From the NCBI GenBank assembly GCA_905178155.1, contig CAJINV010000010.1:3430587-3494586 (forward strand): a stretch of 64,000 bases of DNA, written 5' to 3'. Under the pieces are notes generated by a model. It made no database searches and was not told the origin of the DNA. It saw only the letters and a list, made by a program, of their open reading frames with translations. This document shows positions 5,661 to 44,500 of the stretch, piece by piece. The DNA is from Amoebophrya sp. A120 (Eukaryota > Protista > Dinoflagellata). The stretch's first letter is position 1, and each line of letters opens with the position of its first letter. The translations under genes and the position numbers were made by a program.

Positions 5661-6610
5661 ATAGAGTCTAAATTTTGTCTCGCACAGCTATAAACAGACT
5701 GCGCGGCTCCTACACCGAAAGGATCTAGATTTTCTCTTGCATGATGAGCATGACAGAATCGCAGAGCGTTCCCGTTCCATCTTCTGCAATACAAATTTCC
5801 CCAGGAGATTCTAGTGCGGATTGGGGCTCCGAAACTTGTCATGCGCAATCCTATGGAACTAGGCTAGACCATGCAGTGCTTGCATCACAGATTTCCATCA
5901 TCTATTGTACCGCTTGAGATTGTAACACCTGAGCGGGTTATAAAGCGGACGCTCTGAGCCGGAGGGGCGAATGCTCCGCTGGTACCGCTGGTACCTCATA
6001 TACGTACTTCTGCATCAGTTGGAGCTGCGCTCTCAATGCCGCGACTTCGGTTTCGCACTCTGCCAGAGCAGCCGACCAGTCGGCCGGCTCCGACGAGTGT
6101 GACAACGGAGACGCGGGCGAGGAAGGAAACGAGCAGCCGTCAGAATGCGACGCCGGGGCCGTCGACGAGGAGGGGGAGTGGTGCGCGTGGCTGTGGTGGC
6201 CGTGGGGGGGGGGGGGGGGGGGGGTGACTCTTGTCGTGGTGGCCGTGGCCGTGGTGGCCGCGGCCGTCGTGCGCGACATGACCGTGTCCAGAAGCAGTCA
6301 GGTGTTTCATGCGTTTTGCATGCTCTTGCTCCGCCTTATTAGCAGCAGCTTCAATTCGCTTCAATCGTTCCGCTTTGTCCTCCGCGCTCAGAATGGTTCT
6401 TGGCGATAATTCGTCCACACTGCTTGCGTATACGGACACAAAACCAGGACGAAGAGCCTTTTTCTCAATCATGGAAACTGCACCAGTTGGAGACCCCCGC
6501 TGCAGCGCTGCATCTTGTTCATTGAGGCCATCACTGCACGGCGTGTCGGTGTGCTCCGAAGTCGCAACTGCGAAGCGCAGCAATGCTGTGATAACCAGAA
6601 GCAAATACAT
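5527..6610 (-). CDS. Putative secreted His/Pro/Ser-rich protein; frameshift at the poly-G run near 6204-6224
   Basis: Signal-like MYLLLVITALLRFAVA. ORFs 6140-6628 and 5938-6279 overlap at the G-run. Removing element 5624-5942 gives RASA|SSSFLT...QQEDGY-stop. Confidence 0.65.
5624..5942. mobile_element. Introner family C
   Basis: TIR TAT..CTCAA..GTTACAATCTCAA; direct repeat AAGCG. Confidence 0.9.
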
Positions 6611-15300: not shown

Positions 15301-18300
15301 TGCAAGACAAATCTGATTTGTGTACTCAAATACAGCACCACAGATTTCCGTTTTGTCATGGGGAGGGGGGATTTTTCTTCTTGATATTTCCCGGTACAGC
15401 TTCATGGCACGGGCGAGGTCCTTGATCTTGGCGAAACCTGACAGAGTATGTCAACAGGTAGCTTTGCAACACAAATTTTTTCCAAAATTCTGTTTCGATG
15501 CTACGGCTCCGCATGATTGAAATTGTGATGCATGAAGACCGCTACAATCGTAAGTTATATATCAGTACCTTTGATGATGGTCGTGTACAGAACCGTGTTC
15601 TTGTGCAGGTTGGAGGACTTCATGTCTTCAAAAGTTTGGACGGCCATCTCCACGTGGTTGCACTTCACGCAGGCATCCAGCATGCAGCCGTAGGTGACCG
15701 CGTTCGGGTATCCCACAGAAAAAAGCAGGCAGGGCAGATTTGTAATGCAAAAATAAATACACAGAAAAATCTGTCATGGGCGGCCCCATAGCATGCTGTT
15801 TAGGATATGCTATGCAGACTTTTTTGTGTATTTGTTTTTGCATTACAAATGTGACCTGCCGGCTTTTTTCTGTGTGATATCGGGGGAATATCGGTCTTGC
15901 GCATCTCCTCCCACAACAGCAGAACTGAAAATTTGTATTGCAGAATCCGGATTTGAAAGAGTGGTCTCTGTTGCAGCTGGTGAAAGTGGAACAGCAACAG
16001 CATTTGATACTGAATAAACGGAACCAACGATCCTGGATGCTATTATTTGCAGAAGTTGAAAGCAATTTGTGACGCTGCAATGCAATTATGCAATGCAATA
16101 TCAAAACAACTCCTCTACCGCGATTGAAGTCCCGGAAGGTTCCGTAGGCCTTGATCAGGGTACCGTACGTGACCGCCCCCGGCCGGGCCGAGTACATGTG
16201 CCCACGCAGGTCCACCATCGTTTGTTCCATCGACTGGACGTCCCGGAGTATCAAATGCAAATATGTCTGAGTCTGGAAGAGTGTACTCAAACTTGTCATG
16301 CTGGTTTTCCATGATCCATGAGGTCTGGAATGCGGTACCTAGCATGAAAGACTCTGTGAGGTCTGTATCCTGCCTTTACTGCATGAGAAACTCCGTCCCA
16401 ACTTGGTCGAAAGTGGCCTGCTTTTGGCACTCATGCTCATGCAACACAGACTTCTGCATGATTCAGATTTAGCATGACAAGTTGCCACCTTCCAGACCCA
16501 GACGTATTTGCAGTTGATACGGAGGCGCGCGAAACCATCCAGGCACGTGTTGTACAGACCTTCTTCCGCGTCCTTGGACTTCCGGATATGCAATACAAAT
16601 CTCCCGTACATGTACAAGATGCATCACAAATTTCACCAATTTGGAGCGTGAAACTTATCATGCTAAACTAGGATCGAAGCCAAGTTTTGTCATGCAGAGA
16701 CCGCATTTGCACGTCGTGTACGGGAAATTTACTGTGGATACCGCAGGAATTTTTTCAACAGCGAAAACCCCCGGCGCAGTTTCGCGGTGCGGCTGTCGCC
16801 ATCGAGGGAGATTTTCACGAGCGCGGAGACGGACTGGTAGTCGATCTGGTAGTCGGAGGTCAGCATCTTGTCCACCCACGACCAGGCTTCGTCGACCTTC
16901 TTCCAGCGGATGGCGTGGTCCAGGTACTTTTGGTACCGCATGGCGTTCTCGTCCTGGACAACCGCGGGAGCTGCAGTGGCGGTGGTGTTCTGCTGTTGCT
17001 GCACGTTGGCCGGTTGCGCAGCCGGCTCCTCCTGCAGCTTGGTCTCGGAGGCAACTACATTTTCCACAGTTTGGTCCACCAGAGTCGGTTCCCCAGTATC
17101 AAATGCAAATGTGTTTGGGTTCTTTGGAAGAGTTGTGCCAATTAATTGTCACGCTTGGCCGACGATAAAAGAAAAGTCTGTCATGCTTGTTGCGCGGCTA
17201 CAACGTCACTTCGATTTGTCATGCAAAAAGACAATTTTTCATGCGATTAAGAACGCTACACATTGTAGCCGCTCAGATGAAAGAACTTGTCATGCGCGGC
17301 TCCGCAATACGGTCTGCCGTGTATCATTGGGACATTAGCATGACAACCTTCCAGAGGACCCAGACATATTGGATGCGGTGGATACCCCGCATCAAATGTA
17401 AAAATGTCTGGGTCTGGAAGAACGCGCGATTTGTCATGCAGCTTTTCCACGATCCATGAGGTCTGGAATGCAGGACGTAGCATGACAGATGCTGCGCGAT
17501 CTTTCTCATGCCTCTCCTGCATGAGAAACTGCCTCGCGACTTGGTCAAAACTGGACGACTTTTGGTAATCATGCAACACAGACTTTTGCATGCTTCAGAT
17601 TTAGCATGACAAGTTGCATTCTTCCAGACCCAGACATTTTTACATTTGATACCCCGTCGCCGTCAGCAAATCCGCCGCGCCGGAGTTCAGCAGGGCCGCA
17701 TTCGGATATGCTGTGCAAAAGTATCATAGTAATCTTCGCAGTCACGCATTACAAATCTCCTTCTTGAGGCGAACCCGCATCACAAGTTCCGGTTCTCATG
17801 CTGATAAAATTTGTCATGCGATTTACACTACAACGAGACAACTTTATTTGCAGCGCATATCGGACTGGTCATCACGATCTCGTTTTCTTTGTCACCGATA
17901 TGGGACTCTCAAACGTTACATTCTCAACTGTTACATGATTTGCCATGCAAATTTACCACCAAGATCGCCACGATTAAGCTGCTTCGCATAACAAATCTAC
18001 GAAGGGCTAAACAGCATCTAAATCTGTGCCAAATCTGTAATGCAAAAGGCGCAATCTTGCTCCTTTCACTTTTGCCGTTCTTGCATTACAAATTCGTGTA
18101 ACCGTTGAGAATGTAACATTAGAGAACGCCATAACCGACCGCGCCGGCTTCCATTCCCGACAGCATCTGCAGTTTCTTATGATATGCATTGCAAAAGTAT
18201 CGCACTCGTAGTAATTGCAGTCATGCATTACAAATCTCTTTCGTTAGGTAAATCCGCATTACAAATTTTATTTCTCATGCTGAGAAAATTTGTAATGCAT

Positions 18301-22255: not shown

Positions 22256-25042
22256 TTACTGCCTCTCCCCGGCAAATACAACTTTGAACGGGTGTGGCTG
22301 CGATAGGATATCGTAGAGCCGCCTGTTCACTTTAAACGTGTCTTTTCCTTTCTTCGTTTCCTCGTTCTTATGTCCTGCTTGTTGTCCACCGATGAAGATG
22401 ACTTTTTTTGCCAAAACATCTTCACTGTGGTCTGGTGTCGCTTCTGCGCCTGCCTTTATTTTTTCCCCAGTGAAAGTGATTTCACTTCGAGCATCCTCGA
22501 TCGGAGAAGAACTCTTTTCATCAACCTCGGCGGCAACAAAGGTGGGCGAAAGCTTCCTTCTGGAGCTTACAGAACCAGCATCACACTCGTCCTCCGGAAC
22601 AGCGGTTTGATCTGCTTGCGTTTCCTTTTTCTCGTCCCAAAACTCCTTCTTTTTCCGAAATAAGCAGCAGAAAAAGGCACCCGTATTGCTGTAATGCGGC
22701 ATCAGGCGGGCGCATTTTCGGAGCTCCTTTTTGATCCAGCGGTGGTCTTCTACTTCGTTATTTTTACCTTCATGATCTACTCCTGCGATGCTTTTAGAAG
22801 TTGTACTTACCGGCCACATCGTCTCTCGGTACTTCTTATCAAATGCAAAAATGTCTGGGTCTGGAAGATTAGAACCTGTCATGCTAAATCTCAATGATGC
22901 AAAAATCTGTGTTGCGTAAGTAGCAAAAGCTGTCCGCTTTTGACCAAGTCGAGAGGGAGTTTCTCATGCAGGAAATGCATGATAGAGACCTCAAAGAATC
23001 TGTCATGCTGGGTCTCGCATTCCAGACCTCATGGGTCATGGAAAACCTGCATCACAAATCTTGGACTCTTCCAGACCCAGACATTTTTGCATTTGATACT
23101 TCTTTCTGTCCTCCTTCCCGAGCAGCTTCTGGGACTCCTGGTAAGAGGAAAGGACCGTGTAGGAGGTGGGGGCGTCTACTGTTGAGCTTCTGCCATTTGA
23201 TGTTCCATTTGCATTTGCCTTTTTTGGTTTTCCACCTCCGTCTGCTGGCAGAATTATTTTCTCTCTTTCCGCGACAACCGTCCAATCTTCCAGACCTCTG
23301 TGCATACGACAGGGTGCGACAATGCCGGATTTCGCACTGTCGTGCACGTCGACGACCTCTACACACCCTTTCGGTATTTTCCGCAGCACTGCCTGCACTA
23401 CGGCCTCGTTTTCTAGCGGATTCAGCGAGCACGTGGAGTAACAGAGAAGACCAGTAGTATCACTCGCCAGCAACTTCAACCCCCTGAGTAAAATCTGCAC
23501 CTGGAGCGAGTGTAATTGCTGTCCGAGAAAAGGGTTCCAGGATCTCCATTTCTCCTCGTATTTCCGCATGGTCCCGTCCCCGCTACAGGGCACATCTGCA
23601 ATGATCCGATCGAATTTCAACAAACTCGTTTTCCCAAAAAATTCGGGGAAAATCTGCGCTCGGTGGTTCGTTACAACCACATTCTTCGCGCCGAATTGCA
23701 CCCGCTTCGCCAGGGTGCCCGCCCGCTTCTGGTCAAACTCGTTGGCGAAGAGGAAGCCTGAGTTAGTCTTTTGAGGACCATGACGTTGCTGACCAGTAGT
23801 CGGGCAAGAAACCAATGAATCAGGAGTCGCTGATGTTGTAGTTGTACTAACATCCAAGATCCGTTCCAACGCCTGGCTGGTTTTCGACCCCGGGCTGGCG
23901 CAGAGGTCCAGCACCCGGTGCGATTTCTGGACGTTCAACAAAAACACCGGGAACATCGAGACGATCTCCTGGCGCTCGAGAACCTTATTTCTGTGCTTCT
24001 CCACCAACCACTTTTGGATCTCGGGGAAAAACTTCTGCATCGTCTTCGCATCGTAACACATCTGGAACGCGACGAGCTGCTTAGTTGGCACTGTAGCTGT
24101 TATTGCCTTTGCCGCCGCGGCGTCAGATGTTGAACCTTTAGAAGTTCTGGGAGCTGCTGTATTAGGTTGATGTTTACCTCGATGTACTAGTTCTCGTCGT
24201 CGCTCTTCCAACCCGAAGCGGAACTTCACCGGTTTTGGCACCGTGCGTCCGGTCGCTGTAATGTACGATGGTTCGAGAAAGTGTTTCTTGACCTCCAGCA
24301 ACGCCTTGCCCACCTCGGCTTTCTTCGATTCCAAAGACGAAAACCGGAAGGAAACGCAGATCGGCTGGTGGAGAAATTTGAAAAATTTCTGCCACTCCGT
24401 CCCGTCGTGGGCGAAGAGTTTCTGGTGCAAATGGTAGTACTCCGTGAAATTTTTGCCGATTTTTTCCTTTTCCAATTGGATCTCCCAATACTTTTCGTCC
24501 GTGAGGTAGGTTTCTTGGTCTTGATCAGCTGCACATCCAAATCCTTCGTAGGTGCTCTTTGCATCACGACAAGCTGCTGAAGCAGCTGTAGGCTTTGATA
24601 TTTTCGACACCACATACGCTTTCTCTTTTCCGCGGATGCTAACCCTGCCGTTGCGGCCGCCCGCTTTTCTTCTTGTTTTCCGGCGTGGACGATGTTGATG
24701 GACTTGAAGAACCGTACTGTTCTTACTAGCACTCCTCGTCGCAGCAGCCACTTGCGCGGTACCAGTTCCAGTACCGGTTGAACTTATAGCATTCGACTTC
24801 GTGGCGGCACTTTCATTTGGCCTCGTCCCGACTGTCTTGCTACACGACGGCTTCTTTCGACCATTTTCGCCCGAAAAGGATGAACAATCCTCGGTAGTTG
24901 TAACAAGCTTCCGCCGCTTGGCTGCCGGAAGAACTTCTACACTGGAATCCATAGTTCCAGTTCGTAGAGCTTGTTCAATATCCGGAGTGAAGTCCTCCGA
25001 TGCTGTCTTTTTCAATTCCGTTTCGCTCCCAGCACCTGCCAT
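22256..25042 (-). CDS. NSUN2: RsmB/NOL1/NOP2/Sun-family RNA m5C methyltransferase, NSUN2/Trm4-like; 3' end uncertain
   Basis: Motifs RQEIVSMFP, VLDLCASPGSKT, FDRIIADVPCSGDGT, YSTCSLNPLENEAVV, RLMPHYSNTGAFF. One introner. A possible GTAAGT donor near 22259 could extend the gene. Confidence 0.88.
22837..23098. mobile_element. Introner family A
   Basis: TIR; direct repeat CTTCT. Confidence 0.93.
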
Positions 25043-26174
25043 CTTTTGTGTTTCTAAGTATATTGGTAGTTGTCCGACTCAATTCATTGCTTCAAAAACA
25101 TTAAAAAGGCGCGATGAGCATACTAAAAACTCTTTCTATAAGTTCAACAGCTGATAGCCATGCCCAACAAACCATCTGACTGCACGTGTACCTCGGACAA
25201 GAACTCTGAGTCATTGATTGATCCAATGGCAACAAAAATCGTCAACCAGTAATGAGATCATGATGGAACAGATTCACTTTTTATTCCAGTGCTGGCAAGA
25301 AGTTATGCCTGTTGATCCTGATCGAAAATAGATCCTGGGGCATGATAGATTCTAATTCTTCGCTCCTTCCCCATACAATTCCTTTTCCGAGGAACACCAT
25401 GACAAATAAATCCCCCTTCTGGGCGACATCGATCGCTGATCAATGCAGCATTTTTTTTTTCCAGCAACACCTGATCCAACCGGCCGATCGCACGAACGAC
25501 TAGAGCAAGGCAGCTGGTGGTGTTCTTAGAAGATTTCGTAGAACAAGATGACCAAGGAACAAGACGTGATGATCAATTATCCACCGTCAAGAAGTTTCAA
25601 ATCGTTTAATATTTTCCCTACACTTCTACAGCGTCGAGTCGATACCTTTTTACACTTTTCGGCAATTTGAACAAAATAAGAACCTCGGATTTTGAATTTT
25701 TCTCTTCCAATATTTTGTGGTTTTAATTTTGAAGATGAACCAAACTGAAGGTATCAAAAACTACTTTACATATTAATCTTTTCTCGTTGTGCATGCTTCC
25801 GGTAAAAATTGCTTTCAACATTATTGAAGACTCACATCCCTACTACTTAATTCAAACGGAAAAAGACGCTTCTCCATACTCAGGCTGGTGCCGTCAACGA
25901 AGTCGAAGTCTCGGGAGGTCGTGTTGGCAATAAAGCAGGTTCGGAGGGGGCAACATCAACTTCGGCTGACGACAAACTTCTATTTTCATCTGCCGGCGAG
26001 GAGGTGGATGCTAGGTGTTGTATCGAGGCTTCGTCTGGACGTCCAGAGGGCAAAGTTGTAGGTGCGAGGAGCTCCTGCTGATGATGATGTTCATCTTGTG
26101 CGGCCTGCTGTTGTAGTTGTCGTGTTCTTATTTCTTCCTCCTCCAGCGTTGCTCCGTCCTTTGCGACGTCCGCA

Positions 26175-29100
26175 TCATTGGTCGAGTGGTCCTCGTCCTG
26201 CCGCCCCCGCCTTCGCCTGTAATTTATTGTTCCTTTCCCGGAGAATCGCCGTCACGAGGCCCAGGTGCGGCGCCGCTTTCCGGTAGGCCGGCAACTCATC
26301 TTCGATTTTCGCAATGTTGCCCAACTTGTGCCCGGTTTCCGCCCTGCTGCTGCCCGCGTCTGTTCTTGCCTCCGCCGCTTCCTCCTCCATCGTCTTTACA
26401 TGCTCAGACAAAGTCTGAAAGTCCTCGCGCACACGGACGAGCGACCTGCCCCGCCAAATTTGGCTGTGCGCGTGCTTGGGCCGGCGGGAGAGATCTAGTA
26501 CCAGGGTGTTGGTGCGGAAATTGTGCTCGTTTTGCAAAGCGGCGCACGCCAAGTGCTGGATGTCGTGCATTCGGGTACTCAAAGATTCCAGCTGCTCCTG
26601 TAGCTCCGGATACGGCACCGAGTCCCAAAACGTGTGCAATTGGACCTCGGCGTCCTTCTTTGTGTAGAGGCTGGAACTGGGAAGCGCCTGCGCGTACTGC
26701 TCCACCAGGGGGCGCACCAGGACCATCTCCACGAACTCTTCGGTGTCCATATCTCCTGAGTCAAACGCGTGAAAGGCCCCGGTGTGGTTCACTTGCCACG
26801 AAGCCAGTAGCGGCAGCGCAAACACGCAGTAGCACAGCAGCAACTCGAATACAAAGGAGCACCGAGCCAGGTGGCGTCTACATTTTTCTTTCCGGAAAAA
26901 CCGTCTCTCCGCGGCCACCGCGTCCTCATCTTCCGAAATTTTTTTGTGTTCTGGCGAAAATAAATCCTGTTCTTCCTGATGCTCCGCACTGACTCTGTTT
27001 TCGATAACATCAGAAGTCCTCCTCCATTCAGGGCGAGCGCTAGAAGTTGCAGCAGGAGGCGGTGAATCATGTTGTTCTGAACGCGCCCTGAAAACGAATA
27101 AAACAAGCTGAAGGAAACTTAGCCCGACCCCAGACATATCAAATGCAAATATGTCTGGGTCTGGAAACTTGTAATGCTGGGCTGTGAGTAGTGAATGCTC
27201 TGTAACGTACAGGCAAGCATGAGAAATACTTGCGCGGCTTAGTGTAAGTGTTGCGTTTTTCGCATGACAAACTGCGTTTTTGGATGACAAGCAACAGGGT
27301 CTCTTCTTCCTTGGACACGCATCACAAGCTCTTCAGTCATGCCAGACAAGCATGACAAACCTTGTATCCTTCCAGACCCAGACATATTTGCATTTGATAA
27401 GACACAACGGCGACGCACAACACCAGGAGCCGCGCCCAAGTGATGGGTTCCCACGGCCGCGGCGAGGTTTGGTAATCCAGGCAACCCGAGTGCCACAGGT
27501 AGCCCCGGCGCGTGAGAAAATTGTCAAACAGATCCACCTATGAAATGTAAAAATGTCTGGGTCTGGAAGATCGCAGATTTTTGTCATGCTGTTTTTGCAT
27601 GACACGGAAGGTCTGGCATGGACGCCCTAGCATCACAGGTTTAGGTTACGCAATGCCTAATCCGCATGACAAATCCTCTATTCCGATGACAGAAAATGGG
27701 TAACTTTTGCTGCCTAAGCATGAGAGATTTCTGCGCGTTGTGAAATGCGCATCACAAGTTCGAATCTTTCCAGACCCAGACATATTTGCAATGCATACCA
27801 CCACGGTGGGGTCGGAGATGGCCGTGAGGTAGGTCAAGGGCATATGAAATGCAAATATGTGTGGGTCTGGAAGAATGCAGATTTTTATCATGCTGTTTTT
27901 GCATGACACAGAAGGTCTGTCATGGAAGCCCTAGCATCACAGATTTCGAGAACCTTCCGCCATGCCCAATCCGCATGACAAATCCTCCTTTTTGGTGACA
28001 GAAAATGCGCGCCTTTTGCTGCCTATGCATGAGAAATTTGTCTGTGTTGCGAAATTCGCATAACAAGTTCCAACCTTCCAGACCACCCAGATACATTAGC
28101 AATGCATACGGCACGTTCTCGCCCCAAAAGAGCTGCAGCCCCTCGAAAAGCACCAGCAGAGCACCCCCGGCCTGAGCGGAAAACGAGTGCAGCCGCCAAA
28201 AGACCTTCGCCGTGCGGGCCCGCGATCGCTTCCACCGGGTACTCTTGTTCTTGGTGCCAGCGTAAATTTGGTCTATCGAAGACCAGTATCAGCTGCAAAA
28301 GTGTGTGGGTCTCTGGAAGAATGCCAGACTTGTCCTGCAGGTTCTTTTCCATGACCCATGAGGTCTGGTATGTAGGACATAGCATGACAGATTCTGATGT
28401 GACAGTTCTATCATGCCTATCCTGCATGAGAACCTGCCTCTCGATTAGGTCAAAAGTGGGCAGCTTTTGGTAATCATGCAACGCAGATTCTTACATGATT
28501 CAGATTCAGCATGGCAAGTTGCTTTGTTCCAGACCCAGATGACATTATTGCATTTGATAACGAATCGGTCGGAATCACAAGAGAACAGCAGAAGGACGGG
28601 ACAATCAGCCAGATGGCACGCAGTATCAAAAGGGAAAATCCCCCCTCCCCATATCGAAAAGGAAATCTGTGATGCTGGGTCTGCGTACACAAATCAGATT
28701 TGTCTTGCAGTAGAGGACTCCACGCAGATCGCGAGCCTAGATAGGGGCCTTTTGGTGTAGGCGCGTAGCATGGTAGACGGCTGCCCCGTAGTCCTTACAG
28801 CATTTCAAATCGCCTGCATAGCGTGGCAGAGAGCCTGGACTTGCCTTCTAGCAAAACAGGCAAGATTTGTGGTCACAAATCTGCATCTCAAATTTTCAGA
28901 GGATACGTTTTCAATATGGGGAGAGGGGATTTTTTCTTGCAATACGCAGGCAAATTTCTTCCGGCGACGTCAGCTTCGGCAGCCCCGTATGAACTGCAAA
29001 AGTATCGCACTCGTCCAAATGCATGACAAATTCCCTCAGCATGAGAAATAAAATTTGTAATGCGGATTTACCTTGAGAAAAAAATTTGTAATGCTGCAAG

Positions 29101-32100
29101 ACTTGCATTCATACGAATACGATACTTTTGCGCAGCATACCCCGGATTGCCCCGCTCGCTCGCCTCCTCGGGCGCCGCCCATTGGCAGAAGGACCGGTAC
29201 GCGTGAAACGGGTACTGGTTCAGCAACGTGGCCACCATGTAGAGTACCAGGCACAGGGTAAAAATTTTGCCCTCGGCCGCTTCCGGGTTTTGGCACACGC
29301 TGGACAGTATGGATTGTAAAAAAGTCTGGGTCCTCTCCTGGAAACTTGTGATGCTGGGTGGCGTATCATGAAGAGGCCACAAATGCTGGCTCAGCATGGC
29401 AAGTTTCTGAGCTTGCTTCTAGGTTTTGCCTATTCTGCATGACAAACTGCGTTTCTGCATGACAGCAAAATGGGGCTCTTGGGAAACGTGCATGACAGAT
29501 TTAAGAGTCATGCCAGACTAGCACGAGGAATCTCGCAATCTCCCAGACCCAGACATTTTTGCATTTGATAGACAGCGTGCCGCTCCTCAGAAACCCTTTA
29601 GGCAGCTGCACCTCCTCGACCGGTCTTTCCTCGAAGCCCGGTGGCATAAAAACTGAGGTGTCGTCTTGCTTCTCCACTCCATCTCCGACTCCTTGGCTTA
29701 CAACAACTTCGCCCAGCAGCGAGGTGCCTTTCATCGTACTAGCATCATCTTTTGCGGTTGTTGATGATGCACCACCTGACTCGGCCGTCTGAACAACTTC
29801 CAGGTGGTGACCAAAAGTAGACTCCGCACGAGGACCTCCTTCGCGTTTCTTCAAAAGATCCTCCAGTTTATTCGGCGCTTTCGTTCTCTTCTTTGCGCGG
29901 CGGCCTGGCTCCTCAGTTCTTGTTTCCTCGTCAACATCGCTTGCACCACTCTGCAGGGCGGAGTCCGGAGCGTTCATACTCAGCACTGGTAAATCTTCGT
30001 CATCGACATGCGGCTCGTTTGTCGATTCACCCAGAAAGACACTGCCTTGACTGAAGCTCCCCTCCAGTCTGCTGCTGGTGCTCGTCTCGATGTCGTCGTG
30101 ATCGACGTCCACTGCAGCCTCACTCCCCTCTCCTCGTCTGCTCGCCGTTTTGATGTTCATCATATTTGAAGAAAGGTGACCTTGACCTCCACCCCGCCTG
30201 CTCTTGCGCACCAGCAGTTTCCGCACGATTGTTTCGGGAAAAAACACGAGCTTCCAGGGAAGCAAAGTCCCGAAAACCACGGCTGTATAACCCGCGACCA
30301 AGAGCAAGAACCCCAGCACCCCGTCCGTCCGCGTGGAACCGACGAAGGCGGACTATGGGAGCGTCAGGCTTGAAGTCAACGAAGTTGTTGAAATGATTTG
30401 CCATGCATAAAATGCAAGGCATGAAGTGCCTGTCTTGCCGGGATGGCAAGTGAGGCAGATTGTGAGCCTATCTAGGGTTTGGAATAGAGCTGCTAAAGGA
30501 GCATGACAGAAGCAGTATTCTGTGCCCAAACAGCATGACAAATTGGATCCGGGTGCTCCGAAAATTTGTCATGCGCCGCTTGATAAGTGGGCTTCCAACT
30601 GGTATCGGCTTTATGCATGACAAACTATTTCAACTCTGACGATTTCGATCCTGACACCCCCATACGGACAGCAGAAACCGGATCAGGCTGAGCGTGACCG
30701 CCCCGCACCACCGCACTCGCTGCAGCGCGTCGTGGAAAAAGTCGTGGTGCTGGTCCAGTTTGTCCTTCAACTGCGCGTATGGATTGCAAAAATGTCTGGG
30801 TCTGGAAACTTGTAATGCTAAAAGTGAATGGCACACGCACTGCAATACGCAGCCACGCATGACAAATTTTTTGGCTCCTATCCCAAAGAAAAAAGCCGAC
30901 AGGTCAGAAAAAAAATAATTAAATAATAATTGTTATCGTCAACAATAAAAGCAAAACAAAACAACAAAAAAAATTGCCGCCATACCATGCGGATTAGCTT
31001 CAGGACAGATCAGCAATCCGCGCGAATCATGGTGGGGCTGCTATTGTCAACAATAAAAGCAAAACAAAACAACAAGAATAAACTGCCGCCATACCATTCG
31101 GATTAGCTTCAGGACAGATCAGCAACCCGCGCGAATCAGGGCGGGACGGCGATCGCCCGCTTTTTTTATTTTTGCGACGAATTTCGCCCATTCGCGCCAT
31201 ACCGTGCGGGCTGGGTTTCGTAGGGGGTTGCCGGTTTCGCCAATCCGCACGCCACGGCGCCCGCAGTCGGTTTTGCGGCTTTTTGCAGATTTTCCATGTT
31301 CGCGCCATAGCGTGCGGGCTGGCTATCTGGCGAAGCTGCCGGCTTCGCGAATCCGCACGGCACGGCGGTCGCAGTTAGTTTTTTAAATTTTGGCGAGTTT
31401 TCTTTGTTTCGCGCCATACCGTGCGGGCTGGGCTTCGTACGGGGTTGCCGGCTTCGCCAATCCGCACGGCACGGCGTCCGCCGTCGGTTTTGCGACTTTT
31501 TGCAAATTTTTGCTGTTCGCGCCATAGCGTGCGGGCTGGCTTTCTGGCGAAGCTGCCGGCTTCGCAAATCCGCATGGCGAGGCGGCCGCGGTTAGTTTTG
31601 TGAATTTTGGCGATTTTTTTCCTTTCGCGCCATACCGTGCGGGCTGGGCTTCATAAGAGGTCGCCGGCTTCGCCAATCCGCACGGCACGGCGCCCGCAGT
31701 CGGTTTTGGGACTTTTGGCGAATTTTCTTTGTTCGCGCCATACCGTGCTGCTGGCTTTCTGGCGAAGCTGCCGGCTTCGCGAATCCGCACGGCACGGCGG
31801 CCGCAATTAATTTTGTAAATTTTGTCGGGCTTGTTCCTTTCGCGCCATACCGTGCGGGCTGGCCTTCGGGCGAAGTTGCCGGCTTCGCGCATCCGCATGG
31901 AACGGCGGCCGCAATTAGTTTTGCGAATTTTGGCGAGTTTTTTGCCTTCACGCCATACCGTGCGGGCTGGCGGTCGCAAGAGGGTGCCGGCGTCGCGAAT
32001 CCGCACGGCACGGCGATCGCAATTATCGCTTCAAAATAGGAAGGCAGGAGCTTGGAAACCGTCGAAGGCTTTGCCAGCTTTGCGAAAGTTCCCGAATGTT

Positions 32101-35100
32101 CGGAGTCGCCGGATTCAGAGGCGGCGAGGCGTCAAACCCTCGCCAAGCTTTTCAACATTTGGGAATGCCAAAAATGCGACCCCCTCCTCTATCTGCGGAA
32201 GCTGGCGCACTTAAAGCAAATTGCTCCCGCTTCTGGTAATTTTTGCCGAGTTCGTCCGCGGATACTTTCGAAGGCTCGGAATCGCTTCAAAATAGGCAGG
32301 CAGGAGCCTGGGAGCTGTCGGAGGCTTTGCCAGCTTTGCGAATATTCCCGAATATTCGGAATCGCCGGAATCAGAGGCGGCGAGACGTCAAACCCTCGCC
32401 AAGTTTTTCAACGCTTGGGAATGCCAAAAATGCGACCCCCGCCTCTATCTGCGGAAACTGGCATCCTTAAAGTAAGTGGCTTCCTCTTCTTCTGGAAACT
32501 TTTGCCCGCCGAGTGTGTCCGCGGATCCTTTCGAATATTCGGAATCGCTTCAAAATAGGCAGGCAGGAGTTTGGAAATTGTCGAAGGTTTTGCCAGCTTT
32601 TCGAATGTTCTCGAATCCTCGGAATCGCCGGAATCAGAGGCGGCGAGGCTTCAAATCCTTGCCAAGTTTTTCAACAATTGGGAATGCCAAAAATGCGACC
32701 CCCGCCTCTATCTGCGGAGGCTGACATACTCAAAGCAAATTACTTCCTCTGCTGGGAATTTTTGCCGAGTTCGTCCGCGGATACTTTCGAATATTCGGAA
32801 TCGCTTCAAAATAGGCAGGCAGGAGTTTGGAAACTGTCGAAGGTTTTGCCAGCTTTTCGAATATTCTCGAATATTCGGAATCGCCGGAATCAGAGGCGGC
32901 GAGACTTCAAATCCTTGCCAAGTTTTTCAACAATTGGGAATGCCAAAAGTGCGACCCCCGCCTCTATCTGCGGAGGCTGACATACTCAAAGCAAATTACT
33001 TCCTCTGCTGGGAATTTTTGCCGAGTTCGTCCGCGGATACTTTCGAATATTCGGAATCGCTTCAAAATAGGCAGGCAGGAGTTTGGAAACTGTCGAAGGT
33101 TTTGCCAGCTTTTCGAATATTCTCGAATATTCGGAATCGCCGGAATCAGAGGCGGCGAGACTTCAAATCCTTGCCAAGTTTTTCAACAATTGGGAATGCC
33201 AAAAATGCGACCCCCGCCTCTATCTGCGGAGGCTGACATACTCAAAGCAAATTACTTCCTCTGCTGGGAATTTTTGCCGAGTTCGTCCGCGGATACTTTC
33301 GAATATTCGGAATCGCTTCAAAATAGGCAGGCAGGAGTTTGGAAACTGTCGAAGGTTTTGCCAGCTTTTCGAATATTCTCGAATATTCGGAATCGCCGGA
33401 ATCAGAGGCGGCGAGACTTCAAATCCTTGCCAAGTTTTTCAACAATTGGGAATGCCAAAAATGCGACCCCCGCCTCTATCTGCGGAGGCTGACATACTCA
33501 AAGCAAATTACTTCCTCTGCTGGGAATTTTTGCCGAGTTCGTCCGCGGATACTTTCGAATATTCGGAATCGCTTCAAAATAGGCAGGCAGGAGTTTGGAA
33601 ACTGTCGAAGGTTTTGCCAGCTTTTCGAATATTCTCGAATATTCGGAATCGCCGGAATCAGAGGCGGCGAGACTTCAAATCCTTGCCAAGTTTTTCAACA
33701 ATTGGGAATGCCAAAAATGCGACCCCCGCCTCTATCTGCGGAGGCTGACATACTCAAAGCAAATTACTTCCTCTGCTGGGAATTTTTGCCGAGTTCGTCC
33801 GCGGATACTTTCGAATATTCGGAATCGCTTCAAAATAGGCAGGCAGGAGTTTGGAAACTGTCGAAGGTTTTGCCAGCTTTTCGAATATTCTCGAATATTC
33901 GGAATCGCCGGAATCAGAGGCGGCGAGACTTCAAATCCTTGCCAAGTTTTTCAACAATTGGGAATGCCAAAAATGCGACCCCCGCCTCTATCTGCGGAGG
34001 CTGACATACTCAAAGCAAATTACTTCCTCTGCTGGGAATTTTTGCCGAGTTCGTCCGCGGATACTTTCGAATATTCGGAATCGCTTCAAAATAGGCAGGC
34101 AGGAGTTTGGAAACTGTCGAAGGTTTTGCCAGCTTTTCGAATATTCTCGAATATTCGGAATCGCCGGAATCAGAGGCGGCGAGACTTCAAATCCTTGCCA
34201 AGTTTTTCAACAATTGGGAATGCCAAAAATGCGACCCCCGCCTCTATCTGCGGAGGCTGACATACTCAAAGCAAATTACTTCCTCTGCTGGGAATTTTTG
34301 CCGAGTTCGTCCGCGGATACTTTCGAATATTCGGAATCGCTTCAAAATAGGCAGGCAGGAGTTTGGAAACTGTCGAAGGTTTTGCCAGCTTTTCGAATAT
34401 TCTCGAATATTCGGAATCGCCGGAATCAGAGGCGGCGAGACTTCAAATCCTTGCCAAGTTTTTCAACAATTGGGAATGCCAAAAATGCGACCCCCGCCTC
34501 TATCTGCGGAGGCTGACATACTCAAAGCAAATTACTTCCTCTGCTGGGAATTTTTGCCGAGTTCGTCCGCGGATACTTTCGAATATTCGGAATCGCTTCA
34601 AAATAGGCAGGCAGGAGTTTGGAAACTGTCGAAGGTTTTGCCAGCTTTTCGAATATTCTCGAATATTCGGAATCGCCGGAATCAGAGGCGGCGAGACTTC
34701 AAATCCTTGCCAAGTTTTTCAACAATTGGGAATGCCAAAAATGCGACCCCCGCCTCTATCTGCGGAGGCTGACATACTCAAAGCAAATTACTTCCTCTGC
34801 TGGGAATTTTTGCCGAGTTCGTCCGCGGATACTTTCGAATATTCGGAATCGCTTCAAAATAGGCAGGCAGGAGTTTGGAAACTGTCGAAGGTTTTGCCAG
34901 CTTTTCGAATATTCTCGAATATTCGGAATCGCCGGAATCAGAGGCGGCGAGACTTCAAATCCTTGCCAAGTTTTTCAACAATTGGGAATGCCAAAAATGC
35001 GACCCCCGCCTCTATCTGCGGAGGCTGACATACTCAAAGCAAATTACTTCCTCTGCTGGGAATTTTTGCCGAGTTCGTCCGCGGATACTTTCGAATATTC

Positions 35101-37763
35101 GGAATCGCTTCAAAATAGGCAGGCAGGAGTTTGGAAACTGTCGAAGGTTTTGCCAGCTTTTCGAATATTCTCGAATATTCGGAATCGCCGGAATCAGAGG
35201 CGGCGAGACTTCAAATCCTTGCCAAGTTTTTCAACAATTGGGAATGCCAAAAATGCGACCCCCGCCTCTATCTGCGGAGGCTGACATACTCAAAGCAAAT
35301 TACTTCCTCTGCTGGGAATTTTTGCCGAGTTCGTCCGCGGATACTTTCGAATATTCGGAATCGCTTCAAAATAGGCAGGCAGGAGTTTGGAAACTGTCGA
35401 AGGTTTTGCCAGCTTTTCGAATATTCTCGAATATTCGGAATCGCCGGAATCAGAGGCGGCGAGACTTCAAATCCTTGCCAAGTTTTTCAACAATTGGGAA
35501 TGCCAAAAATGCGCCCCCCGCCTCTATCTGCGGAGACTGACATACTCAAAGCAACTTCCTTCCTCTCCTGGAAATTTTTGCCGAGTTCGTCCGCGGATAC
35601 TTTCGAATATTCGGAATCGCCCGAATCAGAGGCGGCGAGGCTTCAAATCCTTGCCAAGTTTTCCAACGCTTGGGACTGCCAGAAATGGTATGGCGCGAAA
35701 GAAAAAACCCGCCAAAATTTACAAAACTAATTGCGGCCGCCGTGCCGCGCGGATTCGCGAAGCCGGCAGCTTCACCAGAAAGCCATCCCGCACGCTATGG
35801 CGCGAACAAAGAAAATCCGCCAAAAGTCGCAAAACCGACTGCGGGCGCCGTGCCGTGCGGATTGACGAAGCCGGCAAACTCTTACGAAGCCCAGCCCGCA
35901 TGGTGTGGCGCGAAAGGAAAAAACCCGCCAAAATTTACGAAAGTAATTGCGGCCGCCGTGCCGTGCGGATTTGCGAAGCCGGCAGCTTCGCCAGAAAGCC
36001 AGCCCGCGCGGTATGGCGCGAACAAAGGAAATTCGCCAAAAGCCGCAAAACCGACTGCCGGCGCCGTGCCGTGCGGATTGGCGAGGCCGGCAACCTCTTA
36101 CGAAGCCCGGCCCGCACGGTAAAGCGCAAAAGGAAAAACTCGCGAAAATTTACAAAAATAATTGCGGCCGCCGTGCCGTGCGGATTCGCGAAGCCGGCAG
36201 CGTCGCCAGAAAGCCAGCCCGCACGGTATGGCGCGAACGTAGGAAATTCGCCAAAAGTCGCAAAGCCGACTGCGGGCGCCGTGCCATGCGGTTTGGCGAA
36301 TCCGGCAAACTCTTACGAAGCCCAGCCCGCACGGTATGACGCGAAGCAAAAAAATTCGCCAAAATTTGCAAAACTAATTGCGACCGCCGTGCCGTGCGGA
36401 TTCGCGAAGCCGGCAGCTTCGCCAGAAAGCCAGCCCGAACGCTATGGCGCGAACGTAAAAAATTTGAAAAAAATCGCGAGACCGACTGCGGGCGCCGTGC
36501 CGTGCGGATTGGCGAAGCCGGCAGCCCCCTTCGAACCCCAGCCCGCACGGCATGGCGCGAATAAGCGAAATTCGCCACAAAAATAAAAAAGGCGGGCGAT
36601 CACCGTCCCGCCGTGACTCGCGCCGATTGCTGATCTGTCCTGAAGCTAATCCGCATGGTATGGCGGCAATTTTTTTTGTGGTTTTGTTTTGCTTTTATTG
36701 TTGACAATAACAATTATCATTTAATTATTTTTTTTCTGACCTGTCGGCTTTTTTCTTTGGGATAGCTCCCATGTCTTACGTATTCCGCATGGCAAACTGC
36801 GTTTTTCCATGACAGGTAAGCGGGCCTTTTCGTGCCTATGCAACACAGATTCTCGAGACATGCCAGACAAGCATGACAGACTTGCATTCTTCCAGAGCCA
36901 GACGCTTTTGCATTTGATAGCGAATTCTCGACCTGCAGATGGTGCAGGTTTTCCGCAAACTCCTCCATTTTCCGCTCCAAATACCGAACTCGGTCCTCGA
37001 GGTGTTGTGGTGGAGCAGGAGAATTTGTCCTAGAAGTAGAACGGGCTTCTACTCCATCACCGTGGTCCTCCGCTGGCAGGGTCGTCGCCCACCTGCTCGT
37101 CGGAAACGATGGATCTTCAACATGCGGCTCCGAGTAGAAGAAGTCGGGAGATGTTGAAGCGGAGTTGTCCTCCTGGCGCAGTGGTCCCGTTCCACTTCTC
37201 TGCAGGACCGAGGAGCTTCTAATGGAGCCAGCAACTACATGCGATTCCGGTGTCTCCTCAGAATAGAAGTACTCGACGTCCCCTTGATGATGATCTTCGT
37301 CGTGTGTTCCTTCTTTATCGCCACTTGAAGATGGCAAGTTGTCGAAACCCCCATTTTCGCCTACATCGAGGAAAACCAGAGAACTACTACCGGTAGTAGA
37401 GCCTCGTGCAGAATGACGATGCAGCTGGGGCGATGAATTCCTCTTGCTGCTCTCATGCACAACATCATCATGCTCAGCCACGTGAACAGCTGCCGTGGTG
37501 GTGGCTGCGGCGACGAGGAAAATGATCCCAGGCGTGAAGGAGATCATGGGCGTAGTAGTTGTTTTAGTTTTTCTCATGCTTGAAGAAACGTTGCGGGTAC
37601 TTACATTACGATTACACCAAATATCATCCTCCGGGCCGTTTGTACGACCTGCTCCGCTCCATTTGTAGCTCTTTGGTGGAAACAAAACCGTTGAAAATTC
37701 CTGTTCGACGTCGACCTTTCGCTTTCGTGACCTCGAGAAGAAAAAGTCGCGCCGGAACGGCAT
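26175..37763 (-). CDS. Multi-pass membrane protein of unknown family, 9 TIR introns (one is 6.1 kb); may extend to 25880
   Basis: Continuous frame VENS|QLKDKL...LLS|AFVGST...GTL|SSVCQN...NPG|LPKL...CL|RAIW...TDS|SSIDQ...NVP|LTYL...VV|DLFD...VVS|GVGLSF; several hydrophobic segments. Confidence 0.78.
27137..27399. mobile_element. Introner family A
   Basis: TIR; direct repeat AGACA. Confidence 0.92.
27539..27797. mobile_element. Introner family A
   Basis: TIR; direct repeat CCACC. Confidence 0.92.
27843..28108. mobile_element. Introner family A, close relative of 27539-27797
   Basis: TIR; flanks GGGCA/CGGCA. Confidence 0.9.
28287..28559. mobile_element. Introner family A
   Basis: TIR; flanks ACCAG/ACGAA. 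Confidence 0.87.
28624..28944. mobile_element. Introner family I
   Basis: TIR; direct repeat CGCAG. Confidence 0.92.
28988..29139. mobile_element. Introner family B
   Basis: TIR; direct repeat CCCCG. Confidence 0.92.
29308..29570. mobile_element. Introner family A
   Basis: TIR; direct repeat GACAG. Confidence 0.92.
30354..30664. mobile_element. Introner family L
   Basis: TIR TATGGG.G.GTCAGG; direct repeat CGGAC. Confidence 0.88.
31170..32025. repeat. Left-arm subrepeats of about 107 bp (alternating, about 215-bp dimer)
   Basis: Recurrent TTCGCGCCATACCGTGCGGGCTGG...AATCCGCACGGCACGGCG. Confidence 0.88.
32025..35690. repeat. 256-bp tandem satellite, about 14 copies
   Basis: Near-identical ORFs recur every 256 bp from 32571 to 35387; the edge copies are diverged. 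Confidence 0.96.
35690..36585. repeat. Right-arm subrepeats, inverted relative to the left arm
   Basis: Recurrent CGCCGTGCCGTGCGGATT...CCAGCCCGCACGGTATGGCGCGAA. Confidence 0.88.
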
Positions 37764-38535: not shown

Positions 38536-41500
38536 TCAATCGCTCTTGATCCTCGCGTAGATGTAGTGGAGAAACCTCGAGCAGCTCCAATAGGTTATCG
38601 CTCCCATCATCAAGAATATCCCGTACGCGATTACCAAGGAGTAGAGAAAGAAAAAGGATCCCTGCAGAAAGGAATCCATTAGCGACGCTTTGAAGTAGGA
38701 GATGCAGTAGAGGTAGAAAAACACCGCCAGGCTGCTCCCGGAATAGAAAGACCTCCACCACCACTTGTAATTCTCGGCATTCAAAGTCCAGTAGACGAAG
38801 AGCACGGACAGCAAGGCAGACACCATGATGGTCAGAACCAAAGTGAGGAGGAGTATCCCAAAAACTCGGTAGCTCGCGTGGCCTGTAACAATGCACAACT
38901 CCCCCTCCCCCTCATTTGTCATGCAAAATACCAAATTCACACCTTGCACGTAAGCACTGCTAGCATGACAAAGTTTGGAACGTCAAATAGTACTACAATC
39001 CGCATGCAGATTTGTCATGCGAAAGCCCATTTTCTGCTGTTGCTTGTGTTGCTGTTCATGCAACACAAATGAGGGGGAGGGGGAGTTGTGCCCTGTCATA
39101 TGGCCCCAAACGGAGTCAAAGATGTAGTGCAGTTCGGCGTACATGGAGAGGAAAGGGAGGCCGCCGCAGCAAATATACTGAATCAGCACGGACCGGGACC
39201 TTGTGAGGAGGGTTTCGATAAAGTTTTGATGTCTTGTTTATTTCGCGCTTTGATATGGGGTGTGGGTGCAACATCAACATGAGCATGACAAGACAAAAAT
39301 GAAATTTTTTGTGTAGTATCTACTTCGTAATAGGATCATCTTCGCAAGACGAGAAATTCACACGGAATGAAAAGCTGCTTCATATAGAAGTACCAAGTCT
39401 TCGCGTGCGGCGGTATGTGCCTCTCCAGCTTGTTGGTCTTGCAGGGAAAGTAGCTGGCAATTTCGCTGGTTTCGAAGTATTTCTTAATCACCACCTGTCT
39501 CCCCAGCACGCCCCCAACCACCGTCAGGGGGATGGTCACACAGATCCATACGAACAGCAGCAGCACTATCGTCGCGAAGGGAACGGCCACGGTGGAGGAG
39601 TAGAAGATCGCGATGGTGTTCAGCACGGACCAAATTACGAAACAGGGTAAAGCGAACATCAGACTGGTGAGTAAGATGTTTAAGGTCCACCTTTCGCCGT
39701 TCAACACTTGTATCCCACAGAAAAAGTAATAGAGACGCAAGTCAGATAATTTGTAATGCAAAAATAATCCGCAGAAAAATCTGTCATGGACGACCCCATA
39801 GCATGCTGTTTAGGGTACGCATTTTTCTGTGTATTCATTTTTGCATTACAAATCTGCCCTGTCTGCTTTTTTCTGGGGGATAACTTGGTACAAAGACCCG
39901 GACACGTAGCCCGCCACGACCGCGCTGCAAACGTAGAAAAACGTATCGCAGAAAAAAACTATGTGAGTGTAAGTCTGTGATGCAGAAAATGCAAAACTGC
40001 TACACTTGTCATGCTGAATGTGCGTCATGGGCTACTTTCATACGTGTCTCCACTACTACTACCTGCGCATGAGAGGTTTTCCCTGCAATGGAAAGCGAAT
40101 TTGTGAGGCTGCTCTTCCTACAAAGTTACACTTACACAGTTTTTATCCTGCATAAAACGCCATGGAGCTGATCACCGCGTTGTTGTGGTAGTGCCCGAAA
40201 CACCCGAAAAACACTACAGAGAGTGACATGATCAGAATTTGCGTGCCGGTTCCCACCATGGAGGCGAACACCGTGCGGAACTTCGGCGGGCGGAACACGT
40301 CGGCATGGAGGAGCTTCTATGCAGTGCAAAAGTATCGCACTCGTATAAATGCATTACAAATTTCCTCAGCGTGAGAAATAAAATTTGTAATGCGGACTTG
40401 CCTCAAGAAAAAGATTTGTAATGCAAGACATGCATTTATACGAGATACGATACTTTTGCAGAGGATAGCTTCCAGCCGGTATGGGACATAAACTCAAAGG
40501 TGTTGTTATCAATCGCAAATATGTCTGGGTCTGGAATATAATTCTGAGACTTGTCATGCACGTTTTGCATGAGCCATGATGTCGGTGATGCATGCCCTAG
40601 CATCACAGGCTTTTTGAGGGATTCTTGATGCCTATTCCGCATGACAAATGCCCTCTCCGCGTAGCAAAAATTAGATTTCTTTTGCTGCTCATGCAACACA
40701 GATTTTTTTGACATCCAAATGCAGCATCACAAGTTGCATTCTTCCAGACCCAGACATATTTATTGCACTTGATAGTTGTCTAAATCGTCGAAGTCAGAAA
40801 CCAAATCGTCCAACGTTTTGGCCTATCAAGTGCAAATATGTCTGGGTCTGGATGAGCAGAAGTGCAGATGTTTGTAATGCAGGTTTTGCATGACCCAGAG
40901 CGTCTGGCATGCAGGGACTAGCATCACCGGTTTTTCGCGGGGGGCTTCGTGATGCCCCCTACTCTGCATGAGAACAAGTCCGCTCTCATCATGGCCAAGA
41001 ATATGAGACATTAATTTTTGCTGTTCATACAAGACAAATTTTTGTGTGAATTGAAATGTGCATCACAAGTTGCAGCATTCCAGATCCAGACAAATTTGCA
41101 ATGCGTATAGCCTGGCCGCCGCCGTCCGCGTTGGCGTTGCCGATTACGTTGTACTATGGATTGCAAAAATGTCTGGGTCTGGAAGATTGCAACTTGTCAT
41201 GCTAAATCCGAATCATGCAAAAATCTGTGTTGCATGAGTGCCAAAAGCTGTCCACTTTCGACCAAGTTGGGAGGGAGCTTCCCATGCAGGATAGGCATGA
41301 AAGAGACCTCACAAACTCTGTCATGCTAGGTCCCGCATTCCGGACCTCAAGGGCAAGGTCACACTCTTCCAGATCCAGACATTTTTGCATTTCATATGTA
41401 CTGCGGCTTCTTACTCGTTGTCGTCTTGCTTTCGTTGCCCATGGCAGTGTTGAACCCCTCGACGAAGGCGTCGGCTAAGTCAGATTGGAGGTTACGAATC

Positions 41501-44500
41501 AGGACGGAAATCACCACCACGGAAACCACACCCATGACGGCGATGGCGTTCAAAATTCCGAACCAGTGGACCTGAAAAAGTAGTTTTTGTCATGCTTCCC
41601 CGGGTTGCATGACAAAGAGGTCTTGTCATGCTTTGTTTTGCATTACAAATTTATGTACCTTCATATGCGCTCGTCCTTCCCTTCCCTCCTCCTCGGACAC
41701 AATTCCGGCGTAGTTGTTATCGTATGTAAAAACGTCTCCACCCTTGTAAGTAATGCAAAACTGCATGCTGAAAATGTTTCTCATGCGAAGCCCCATGAGA
41801 AGCATTGCCTAGTCGTGTTTTGGAATTTGTCATGCTCCAATCTGCATCATATACGAGATCTGTGATGCTGCTGAACTACCTCAAACAGCACTACACTACG
41901 AGTCCAAATTTGTCATGCAAAACGGCCAAAACATGTGGACTTGTCTAGCCGATTCCCCATCTTGACTATGGGATCGTGGGGACGTTTTTACATAGGATAG
42001 TTGTGCATGATTTGGTACTCCAGCGCCTCGTCCCGGGTCATCCCGTAGTCCGTGTGCGGAAACCAGTGCACGGACATCGTGAACTGGACCTTCATATGCA
42101 TTGCAAAAGTATCGCACTCGTATAAATGCATTACAAATTTTCTCAGCATTAGAAATAAAATTTGTAATGCGGATTTACCTTAAGAAAAGGATTTGTAATG
42201 CATGATTGCAATTACGTACGAGTACGATACTTCTGCACAGGATACTTCAACGACTTTTTCATGTTCGTGTTCATTTTCGCATCCCCATCTATGCATCTTC
42301 AGAAAAGTTATCGCACTACTAGAAATTGCCTTCCAACTTTTTCCAGATGGCATGATTTTTAATGCTAATTTTCTTCAAACAGAGGAAACTTGTCAGCATG
42401 CGTCATCGATGCAAAAATTAGCACGAGTACTATGCGATACTTTTGTAGAAGATACCCTCAGGGAAAGAACCGCTGAAGGAGAAGTATAACTTGCTCAAGC
42501 GTTACAATCTCAAACGTTACAGTAGAATATAGAAATCTGTGATGCAAGAAGTGCATGAGCTAACCTACTCTCACAGGGTTGCGCATGACAAGTTTCGGAG
42601 CCCCAAACCGCACTAGAATCTGCCGAGATCTGTATTGCAGAAAGTGGAACGCTCCGCGATTCTGTCATGCCTAGCATGCAAGACAAAATCCAGATTCTAT
42701 TGTAACGTTTGAGATTCTATCGTTTGAGCGGGTCATATGAAGAGCGGGATGTCGGGTAGCTCCGTCATGTCGGATAGAAGCGGCGAGGTCATCTTCACCT
42801 GCATGATCTCCCCCTTGCTGTGCGTGACCTCAAAGTCGTAGTGGTTGCGCAGGTAGTACTTGGATTTCTTTTTCAGATCCTCCTTCTCCTCTTCCGACAA
42901 ATTCATGTCCTGCTCGTTGTCAATCAGGCCCTCCCTTTTGTGGTACAATTCCGAGACGTACACGCTCCACATCTTCTCGGCCAGATTTTGCTTGTGGAAC
43001 GGCGTTATGGACTGCAAATATCTATGTCTGGGTCTGGAAACTTGTGATGCTAAGATGTGAATGGTGAGCGCAGCCGCAGTGCAATACGCCGTCAAGCATG
43101 ACAAATCTTTGGGCTGCTAATCTGTTTCGTTTTCCGTATGGCAAACTGCGTTTTTGCATGACAGGCAACCAGCCCTTCTCCTGCTCATGCATCACAGATT
43201 TATGAGTCATGCCAGCCTAGCATGACAGATCTTGCATTCTTCCAGACCCAGACATATTTGCAGTTCATAGGCGTCTCTTCCGGGCGGAGGCTGCTTTCCG
43301 CGATCTCCTTGTCCCCTTCCTTCTCCAGTTCTTCATAGTGCTTGGCGTTATTTATCCAACGAAAAAAGTGTTTCACTGTGATAAATTTGCAAGATCCGCA
43401 TCACAAGTTTCTTTACACATGACACAGAAAATTTGTCATGCGCGCTGCCACAGGGAAAACACCCTCCACGAGTCAAGGCCGTGCAGGTGTAGCAACACAA
43501 AAAGTTCTGTGTTCCATTCTATGCATCACAAGTTCACAGTTTTTTCTTTCGATATTATTCGGGGACAGCTTAATGCCGATGAAATCCGAGACGGGAAACT
43601 GATCCACAGAGAGCTCGGCGATGTACCTGGTGGTGTCGCGTGTTCTTTATGTTGTATGTACAACACGTGAAGATGATGCAAGATAGACCTAAACTTGCCA
43701 TTATGGTGCTGGATGATCACATGCATCGTTATGTGCTGCTATTCTGGTACTACGTGCCTTGATGTTGACCACGTGCACGTGCTAGGTTCATTTCTCTGGT
43801 GCCACCATTCATCAAAACAATTTTGTGGTGCCTCCAAAGTAGTACAGAACAAGTGGTCCTCCATGTAGTAACTAAAGCAAGTAAGTACCACTCATCAATC
43901 CCCTTTCTTAGCATCGCGATCTCCCAGGGATTCAGCTCGCGCTCGCAAATAACCTTGGTCTTGGTCTCATACACAAACGCGGAACCCGGTTGACTCGCCT
44001 CTACCTTCCAAAACTGGGAAGGCAGGCGTTTGAAATCTAGCTGGGAAGAAAGCAGCCGGTCGCCCTGGAGTATCTGGCCCAAGGTCATAAACTGCGGGAT
44101 CGGCAACTCGGGGGCGCAGACTAACGGGAAGTCGTAGTACCTGTTGGTGATGTGATATCATAGCATTTGATGTTGACAAACACCCACAACGCGGAAAACA
44201 TGTAGCATGTGCAGCTGCAAAATTTTCATATCCAAAAACTTGTCCAACGTGTCGCATAAAATACCCCAGACGAACTACTGCTCTTACCTGTATGTTTCCT
44301 GCGGGTTTTCGCTCGGCCAGATTTTGTTATCAAAGCGAAAAAAAGCCACCACCCCATAGAAAACAAGAAATTTCTGTTGCTGGATTTCTGTACACAAATC
44401 AGGGCTGTATTGCACATGGCGCTTGGAGGCACTTCCTAAGCCTGAATGATGGGTATGCAGCAAGCTAGCAGTTAGGCAGGGCAGACACCTTTGCAGTATG

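Follow-up and report, generated by a model that had tools for sequence, protein, structure and literature searches.

Introduction

Introners of the dinoflagellate Amoebophrya sp. A120 have tips that start with TAT, followed by seven variable bases and then three or more A, according to the sections of Farhat et al. (2021, PMC7789003) consulted here. In the same sections, the A120 gene models are described as built from transcript alignments, intron clustering is restricted to introns of up to 1 kb, and putative transposases are reported only in A25 and none in A120, with the authors arguing against mobilisation by a transposase. Longer repeats of this genome were catalogued by Gozashti et al. 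(2025, PMC12130899), in whose available tables family 38 appears with "5-bp TSD, TA/TA termini", a length of ~810 bp and ORFs similar to Copia/Gypsy integrase. The consensuses of families 25, 60, 86 and 122 measure 1.6-6.8 kb and contain satellites or simple repeats, and one 5627-bp consensus of family 25 has terminal inverted repeats (TIRs). No foldback structure is described in that paper, and the word "foldback" does not occur in its main text. The A120 introner system, its TAT/5-bp end signature and large satellite-bearing consensuses are already published.

Foldback transposons with long modular TIRs are known from Drosophila. For Tetris of Drosophila virilis, the account in PMC4079207, as far as consulted, gives few complete copies, and the enzyme was not found. 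For dinoflagellates, we found no description of a foldback element in the mostly open-access literature searched.

Here we analysed a 64,000-nucleotide stretch of the A120 genome (hereafter, the window) that contains a multi-kb foldback-like element inserted within an intron. Such an insertion with a clean 5-bp duplication bears on what moves Amoebophrya introners. The resulting 6147-nt intron also touches on the question of how introns with non-canonical borders are spliced in Amoebophrya, where no U1 snRNA has been detected.

Structure of the foldback-like element

The initial annotation placed the element at 30879-36764, with TAT…ATA termini and an exact duplication of GCTCC, and all of these were reproduced (Table 1). 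The two ends are identical over 46 bp, and 136 of the 139 outermost positions match. The inverted arms of about 1 kb built from ~107-bp modules that it had described were recovered as a left arm of 1146 bp (30879-32024) and a right arm of 1078 bp (35687-36764), which share 88.3% identity over 1035 aligned columns. The modules are 108 bp long (range 107-109) and alternate between an A and a B form, which makes a 216-bp dimer. The tandem duplication in the outer domain of the left arm (30934-31145) is absent from the right arm.

A 15-bp motif occurs as two inverted copies in each arm module, and one copy is also found in the outer domain. In total, the motif has 28 matches in the large element vs none in 105 small elements. 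Long modular inverted arms, internal tandem repeats and a target-site duplication make up a Foldback-type architecture, as the initial annotation had suggested, and the structure of the large element is confirmed. That annotation had overlooked the nesting of the element in a small introner, the 109-bp duplication of the left arm and a second copy of the small introner family H (39711-39882).

Table 1 Coordinates of the foldback-like element, its host introner and exons, and the family H introners in the window.
Feature	Position	Strand	Description
Foldback-like element	30879..36764		5886 bp; TAT start, ATA end, GCTCC on either side
Left target-site duplication copy, GCTCC	30874..30878	+	one copy aligns with the empty site of eight host-introner relatives
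Right target-site duplication copy, GCTCC	36765..36769	+	
Left tip, 30 bp	30879..30908	+	sole part in common with family H; TAT, 7 bases, A run
Left-arm outer domain	30879..31190	+	with 109-bp tandem duplication
Left-arm modules	31191..32024	+	7.6 x 108 bp, A/B alternation
Satellite core	32025..35686	+	~14 head-to-tail 256-bp units
Right-arm modules	35687..36561	-	8.1 x 108 bp, in the opposite orientation to those of the left arm
Right-arm outer domain and tip	36562..36764	-	
Host introner, left part	30778..30878	.	commonest 250-270-bp family of the window, split by the insertion
Host introner, right part	36765..36919	.	own flanking duplication decayed to 3/5
Host gene, upstream exon	36920..37577	-	residues 1-219 of P0001
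Host gene, downstream exon	30665..30772	-	about residues 220-255 of P0001
Family H small introner, copy 1	15709..15879	.	171 bp, 5-bp duplication
Family H small introner, copy 2	39711..39882	.	172 bp, 5-bp duplication

Satellite core and evidence for other copies

The 256-bp satellite core reported earlier was also recovered, with 14.0 copies counted by TRF. Nine consecutive units in its middle are letter-identical, and the first two units are 87-88% like the remainder. The A120 assembly consists of Illumina scaffolds treated with GapCloser; the identical units could partly reflect gap-filling, and the total number of core units may be off. Derivation of the core from the arm module was considered and rejected, the best alignment being no better than E 0.48. 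An Rfam search of 30700-33300 returned no matches, and none of 207 candidates from a protein collection (proteins of 123-394 aa) matched the translation of the core. As a separate observation, one core unit (33036-33291) has 2 stop triplets on the plus strand vs 8.7 expected from dinucleotide shuffles, a deficit reached in 2 of 1000 shuffles in a post hoc test of two strands.

Short-read contigs from two sequencing runs (X1 and X2) were compared with the element. In X1, a 93-bp contig bridges the junction between the core and the right arm with 0 differences at a depth of 22.8. A second contig over the core-arm junction has 4 differences and depths of 52.2 (X1) and 90.7 (X2), and a nearby single-copy contig of 870 bp has depths of 32.5 and 43.4, respectively; summed contig depth is not to be read as copy number. 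The short-read contigs also include variants of the arm and of the core. The two runs are not independent, because they represent one sample, which is possibly the source of the assembly.

Because the core-arm junction occurs in a second sequence version beside the contig without differences, the genome likely contains at least two copies of the element, perhaps three, with the same core beside the right arm. The earlier proposal that copies occur elsewhere gains likely support from this variant. None of 12 loose contig ends, out of 18, points to another interior, and no contig among the 16 pieces listed bridges the outer junction (30878/30879). A search of metagenome contigs with the tip pattern yielded eight loci (L001-L008), all of them small family H elements of one related assembly and none large. 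The arm pattern was found in none of the eight, and viral contigs had no matches to the tip or arm patterns. The arm and core sequences are distinctive and could be used to probe cleanly for the few other copies.

Host introner, host gene and splicing

The large element lies inside a small introner that spans 30778-36919. After removal of the insert and one GCTCC, the host introner is 251 bp long and is colinear from end to end with eight relatives (252 bp). The GCTCC duplication is real because the empty site is known from this comparison, and a clean 5-bp duplication at a known empty site argues for insertion at the DNA level through a staggered cut.

The exon adjoining the element had a 100% match to a protein of 1035 aa ("unnamed protein product [Amoebophrya sp. 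A120]"; hereafter, P0001). The NCBI model of P0001 joins the upstream and downstream exons across the entire 6147-nt compound intron and retains the upstream copy of the decayed duplication of the host introner. None of the four possible placements of the intron borders is GT-AG. The exon borders belong to the host introner, and the large element itself does not lie at them.

The host gene (minus strand, 26178-37577) contains nine introner introns, and excising each introner together with five extra bases leaves an open frame that deviates from P0001 at only 2 residues, each at a decayed introner duplication. In a search of longer proteins, no protein other than P0001 matched that could guide the exon join. 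Because the A120 models are transcript-based and no other guiding protein was found, the 6147-nt compound intron is probably spliced, as judged from one gene model. Raw RNA runs X10 and X11 gave no coverage of the host gene and runs X3 and X9 gave nothing at the core-arm junction, neither of which is informative about expression. Runs X3 and X4 contained 0.55-0.56 of the words of a stretch that is ~54% exon, a figure that was set aside.

The predicted MFE fold of the pre-mRNA has 938 arm-to-arm pairs, and the ends of the host introner are still paired. Any inverted repeat would pair in this way, so the fold shows only compatibility with a hairpin model. The locus represents a natural experiment, in which a self-pairing insert has lengthened a 251-nt non-canonical intron 24-fold, with removal still at the original borders according to the gene model.

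Other genes of the window, all on the minus strand, encode a PPR protein (13792-14124), an RsmB/NSUN-type RNA methyltransferase (23039-25078), an EMP70/TM9SF protein (38539-44157) and a protein kinase (53084-56515).

Small introners in the window and related loci

One scan detected 49 small TAT…ATA elements, which together occupy 11,965 bp of the window. When 53 elements from seven related loci were added, in a set chosen without selecting on the duplication, the flanking duplication was exactly 5 bp in 73 of 102 small elements and in no case 3, 4, 6, 7 or 8 bp. The large element shares this 5-bp length, and the signature is sharper than the 3-5-nt direct repeats that had been reported. The related loci are contigs of another assembly. 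The introner families of the window, family H among them, recur there with 5-bp duplications; one insertion is represented in both L004 and L008, and L008 was dropped from the counts.

Among 105 small introners from many tip families, 103 contain an internal motif of 8 bp, GCAT-G/T/C-ACA or the complementary sequence. Its density is 10.9 per kb in small introners vs 1.3 per kb outside, and it often lies 30-49 bp from an end. Possible roles are as a site for the transposase or as a splicing signal of these non-canonical introns, and we did not find the motif described in the portions of the A120 introner literature examined.

Two introners of the commonest family (2627-2881 and 3217-3470) are 93% identical, inverted and ~330 bp apart within one gene; the pair is a recent local hop that produced a composite inverted repeat. 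A 372-bp direct duplication with 81% identity (4968-5662) includes introner-type sequence.

Relation to family H

The tip of the large element had been matched to the family H end at 15879 at 25 of 28 positions, and this match holds. The 105 small elements supply 210 tips, of which 12 score 22-25/28, all of them from family H (copies of 171-179 bp); the copies in L001-L007 were fetched by the tip pattern, and the scores from these loci are selected because of this. The best tip from outside family H scored 18/28. The similarity is better than chance, with none of 2000 shuffled tips scoring above 22.

Homology between the large element and family H ends at 28-30 bp, with longer runs comprising only A/T-rich gapped matches, and blastn of the large element against the eight loci gave matches at positions 1-30 only. 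The 60-bp inverted arms of family H are absent from the large element. The internal motif of small elements, which lies at +33 in the family H copy that starts at 15709, is also absent, though this is weak evidence taken alone given ~0.7 kb of non-redundant sequence in the large element and a background of 1.3 per kb.

The possibility that the arm modules are arrays of the small-introner motif was rejected, with best scores of -0.1 to 7.5 bits vs a median of 17. In a weight-matrix scan of the arms, five of six parts fell inside the shuffled range.

The initial annotation had proposed the large element as a candidate large relative or parent of family H. The relationship stands for the tips only, and parentage is not supported, with homology ending at ~30 bp. 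An origin of family H by internal deletion of the large element is unlikely from these alignments, because nothing is in common beyond ~30 bp and the internal motif is missing from the large element and its arms. It can reasonably be inferred that one transposase would mobilise both the large element and family H.

Coding capacity

The absence of a transposase ORF from the large element, noted earlier, was confirmed by a Pfam search of 17 frames covering it, which gave no family at threshold. Transposase or integrase families were likewise not detected in 10 neighbouring frames, 64 further frames of the window or 108 frames of L001-L007, making a total of 199 unspliced frames with a minimum length of 125-135 aa. 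The suggestion that other copies carry the missing transposase gene is unsupported: the second core-arm junction, at least at the junction itself, carries the same satellite.

Proposed mechanism and alternative explanations

We conclude, with a probability of roughly 0.7, that the large element is a non-autonomous foldback-type DNA transposon that is moved in trans by the transposase of the family H introners. A DDE transposase, probably related to integrases, would bind the tips and make a 5-bp staggered cut. Our best guess is a DDE enzyme of the integrase-related kind, because A120 family 38 has TA/TA ends, a 5-bp duplication and integrase-like ORFs. The lack of transposases in A120 in the genome paper and in the 199 frames searched here speaks against it. 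The arms would have grown via tandem duplication of the 108-bp unit with its paired 15-bp motif, and the core would have expanded by unequal exchange or slippage, differently among copies.

By analogy with Galileo, the arm motif may add binding sites for the transposase, and the proposal that these are extra sites for the same enzyme is weakened because the motif is absent from the 105 small elements. The copy would have been tolerated because it landed within an intron that is still removed. Pairing between the arms is predicted in the pre-mRNA; it would loop the insert out without disturbing the terminal hairpin of the host introner.

Alternatively, the large element could belong to a transposon family of its own that has a distinct enzyme, and its likeness to family H at the tips would stem from common descent within the A120 TAT system rather than from present-day use of one transposase. 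The tips of the large element differ from all family H tips examined at 3 or more of 28 positions, which fits this explanation, as does the mutual exclusion of the arm motif and the small-element motif. However, the family H tips differ as much among themselves (18-23/25 within one copy), and no other family exceeds 18/28; we regard a separate family as unlikely.

We consider a broader scenario to be quite unlikely. In it, TAT introners and the giant foldback would be passengers of an undescribed integrase-type lineage with TA…TA ends and a 5-bp duplication, sister to IS3EU/GingerRoot, with the transposase in another copy between satellite blocks. The kb-long arms would then be an adaptation that hides a multi-kb element in introns through folding out of a hairpin-guided, U1-independent splicing process.

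It is very unlikely that the element is a decayed autonomous parent, from which family H arose by internal deletion and of which another copy keeps a transposase gene between satellite blocks. The tip match of up to 25/28 agrees with such descent, and other copies are likely and possibly have different interiors. Nevertheless, this reading is at odds with the lack of homology past ~30 bp, the missing 60-bp arms and internal motif of family H, the same satellite at the second core-arm junction, the 12 loose ends out of 18 without another interior, and a core translation without a protein match.

Least probable of all, and highly improbable, is a one-off local structure or assembly product, i.e., a pair of family H-type ends inflated in place or filled in at a gap: the nine identical core units, the GapCloser-treated Illumina scaffolds and the outer junction missing from the 16 contigs would suit it, but the duplication is clean and lies inside a colinear host, the arms are unequal and 12% diverged, and the core-arm junction occurs letter for letter in a short-read contig, together with a distinct variant.

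Comparison with known systems

Compared with the A120 introners in the consulted sections of Farhat et al. (PMC7789003), the large element has the same tip pattern, a flanking direct repeat and no transposase, and it lies in the same genome. Unlike those introners, it is ~25 times longer and has modular arms and a satellite core, without the internal motif of the small elements; it is also nested in an introner and is not itself at an exon-exon boundary. It resembles family 38 in its TA/TA ends and 5-bp duplication and differs from it in having no integrase-like ORF (0 of 17 frames with a Pfam match at threshold). The 5627-bp consensus of family 25 may be the family of the large element, a comparison made by table description rather than by sequence.

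Among transposons of other organisms, IS3EU and GingerRoot share TA…TA termini in the descriptions consulted (PMC10045372, PMC6839031), and membership in that group was rejected on the duplication, which is 6 bp there vs 5 bp here. Galileo, a foldback of the P superfamily, likewise has long and internally repetitive TIRs; unlike the large element, it is described in the consulted part of PMC3688188 as having a THAP transposase and demonstrated binding sites in its TIR repeats.

The architecture has a close precedent in Drosophila, and the element itself yields no enzyme. In the part of PMC4079207 consulted, Tetris has 8-10-bp duplications of the Mutator-like type, and the 5-bp duplication of the large element rules out membership among Mutator-type foldbacks. 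The satellite of Tetris derives from a TIR repeat, whereas the 256-bp core shows no relation to the arm module here. The large element is nonetheless like Tetris in being a non-autonomous foldback with modular TIRs whose module motif recurs in the outer domain and, as in Tetris and DAIBAM, only its TIR ends are in common with a MITE.
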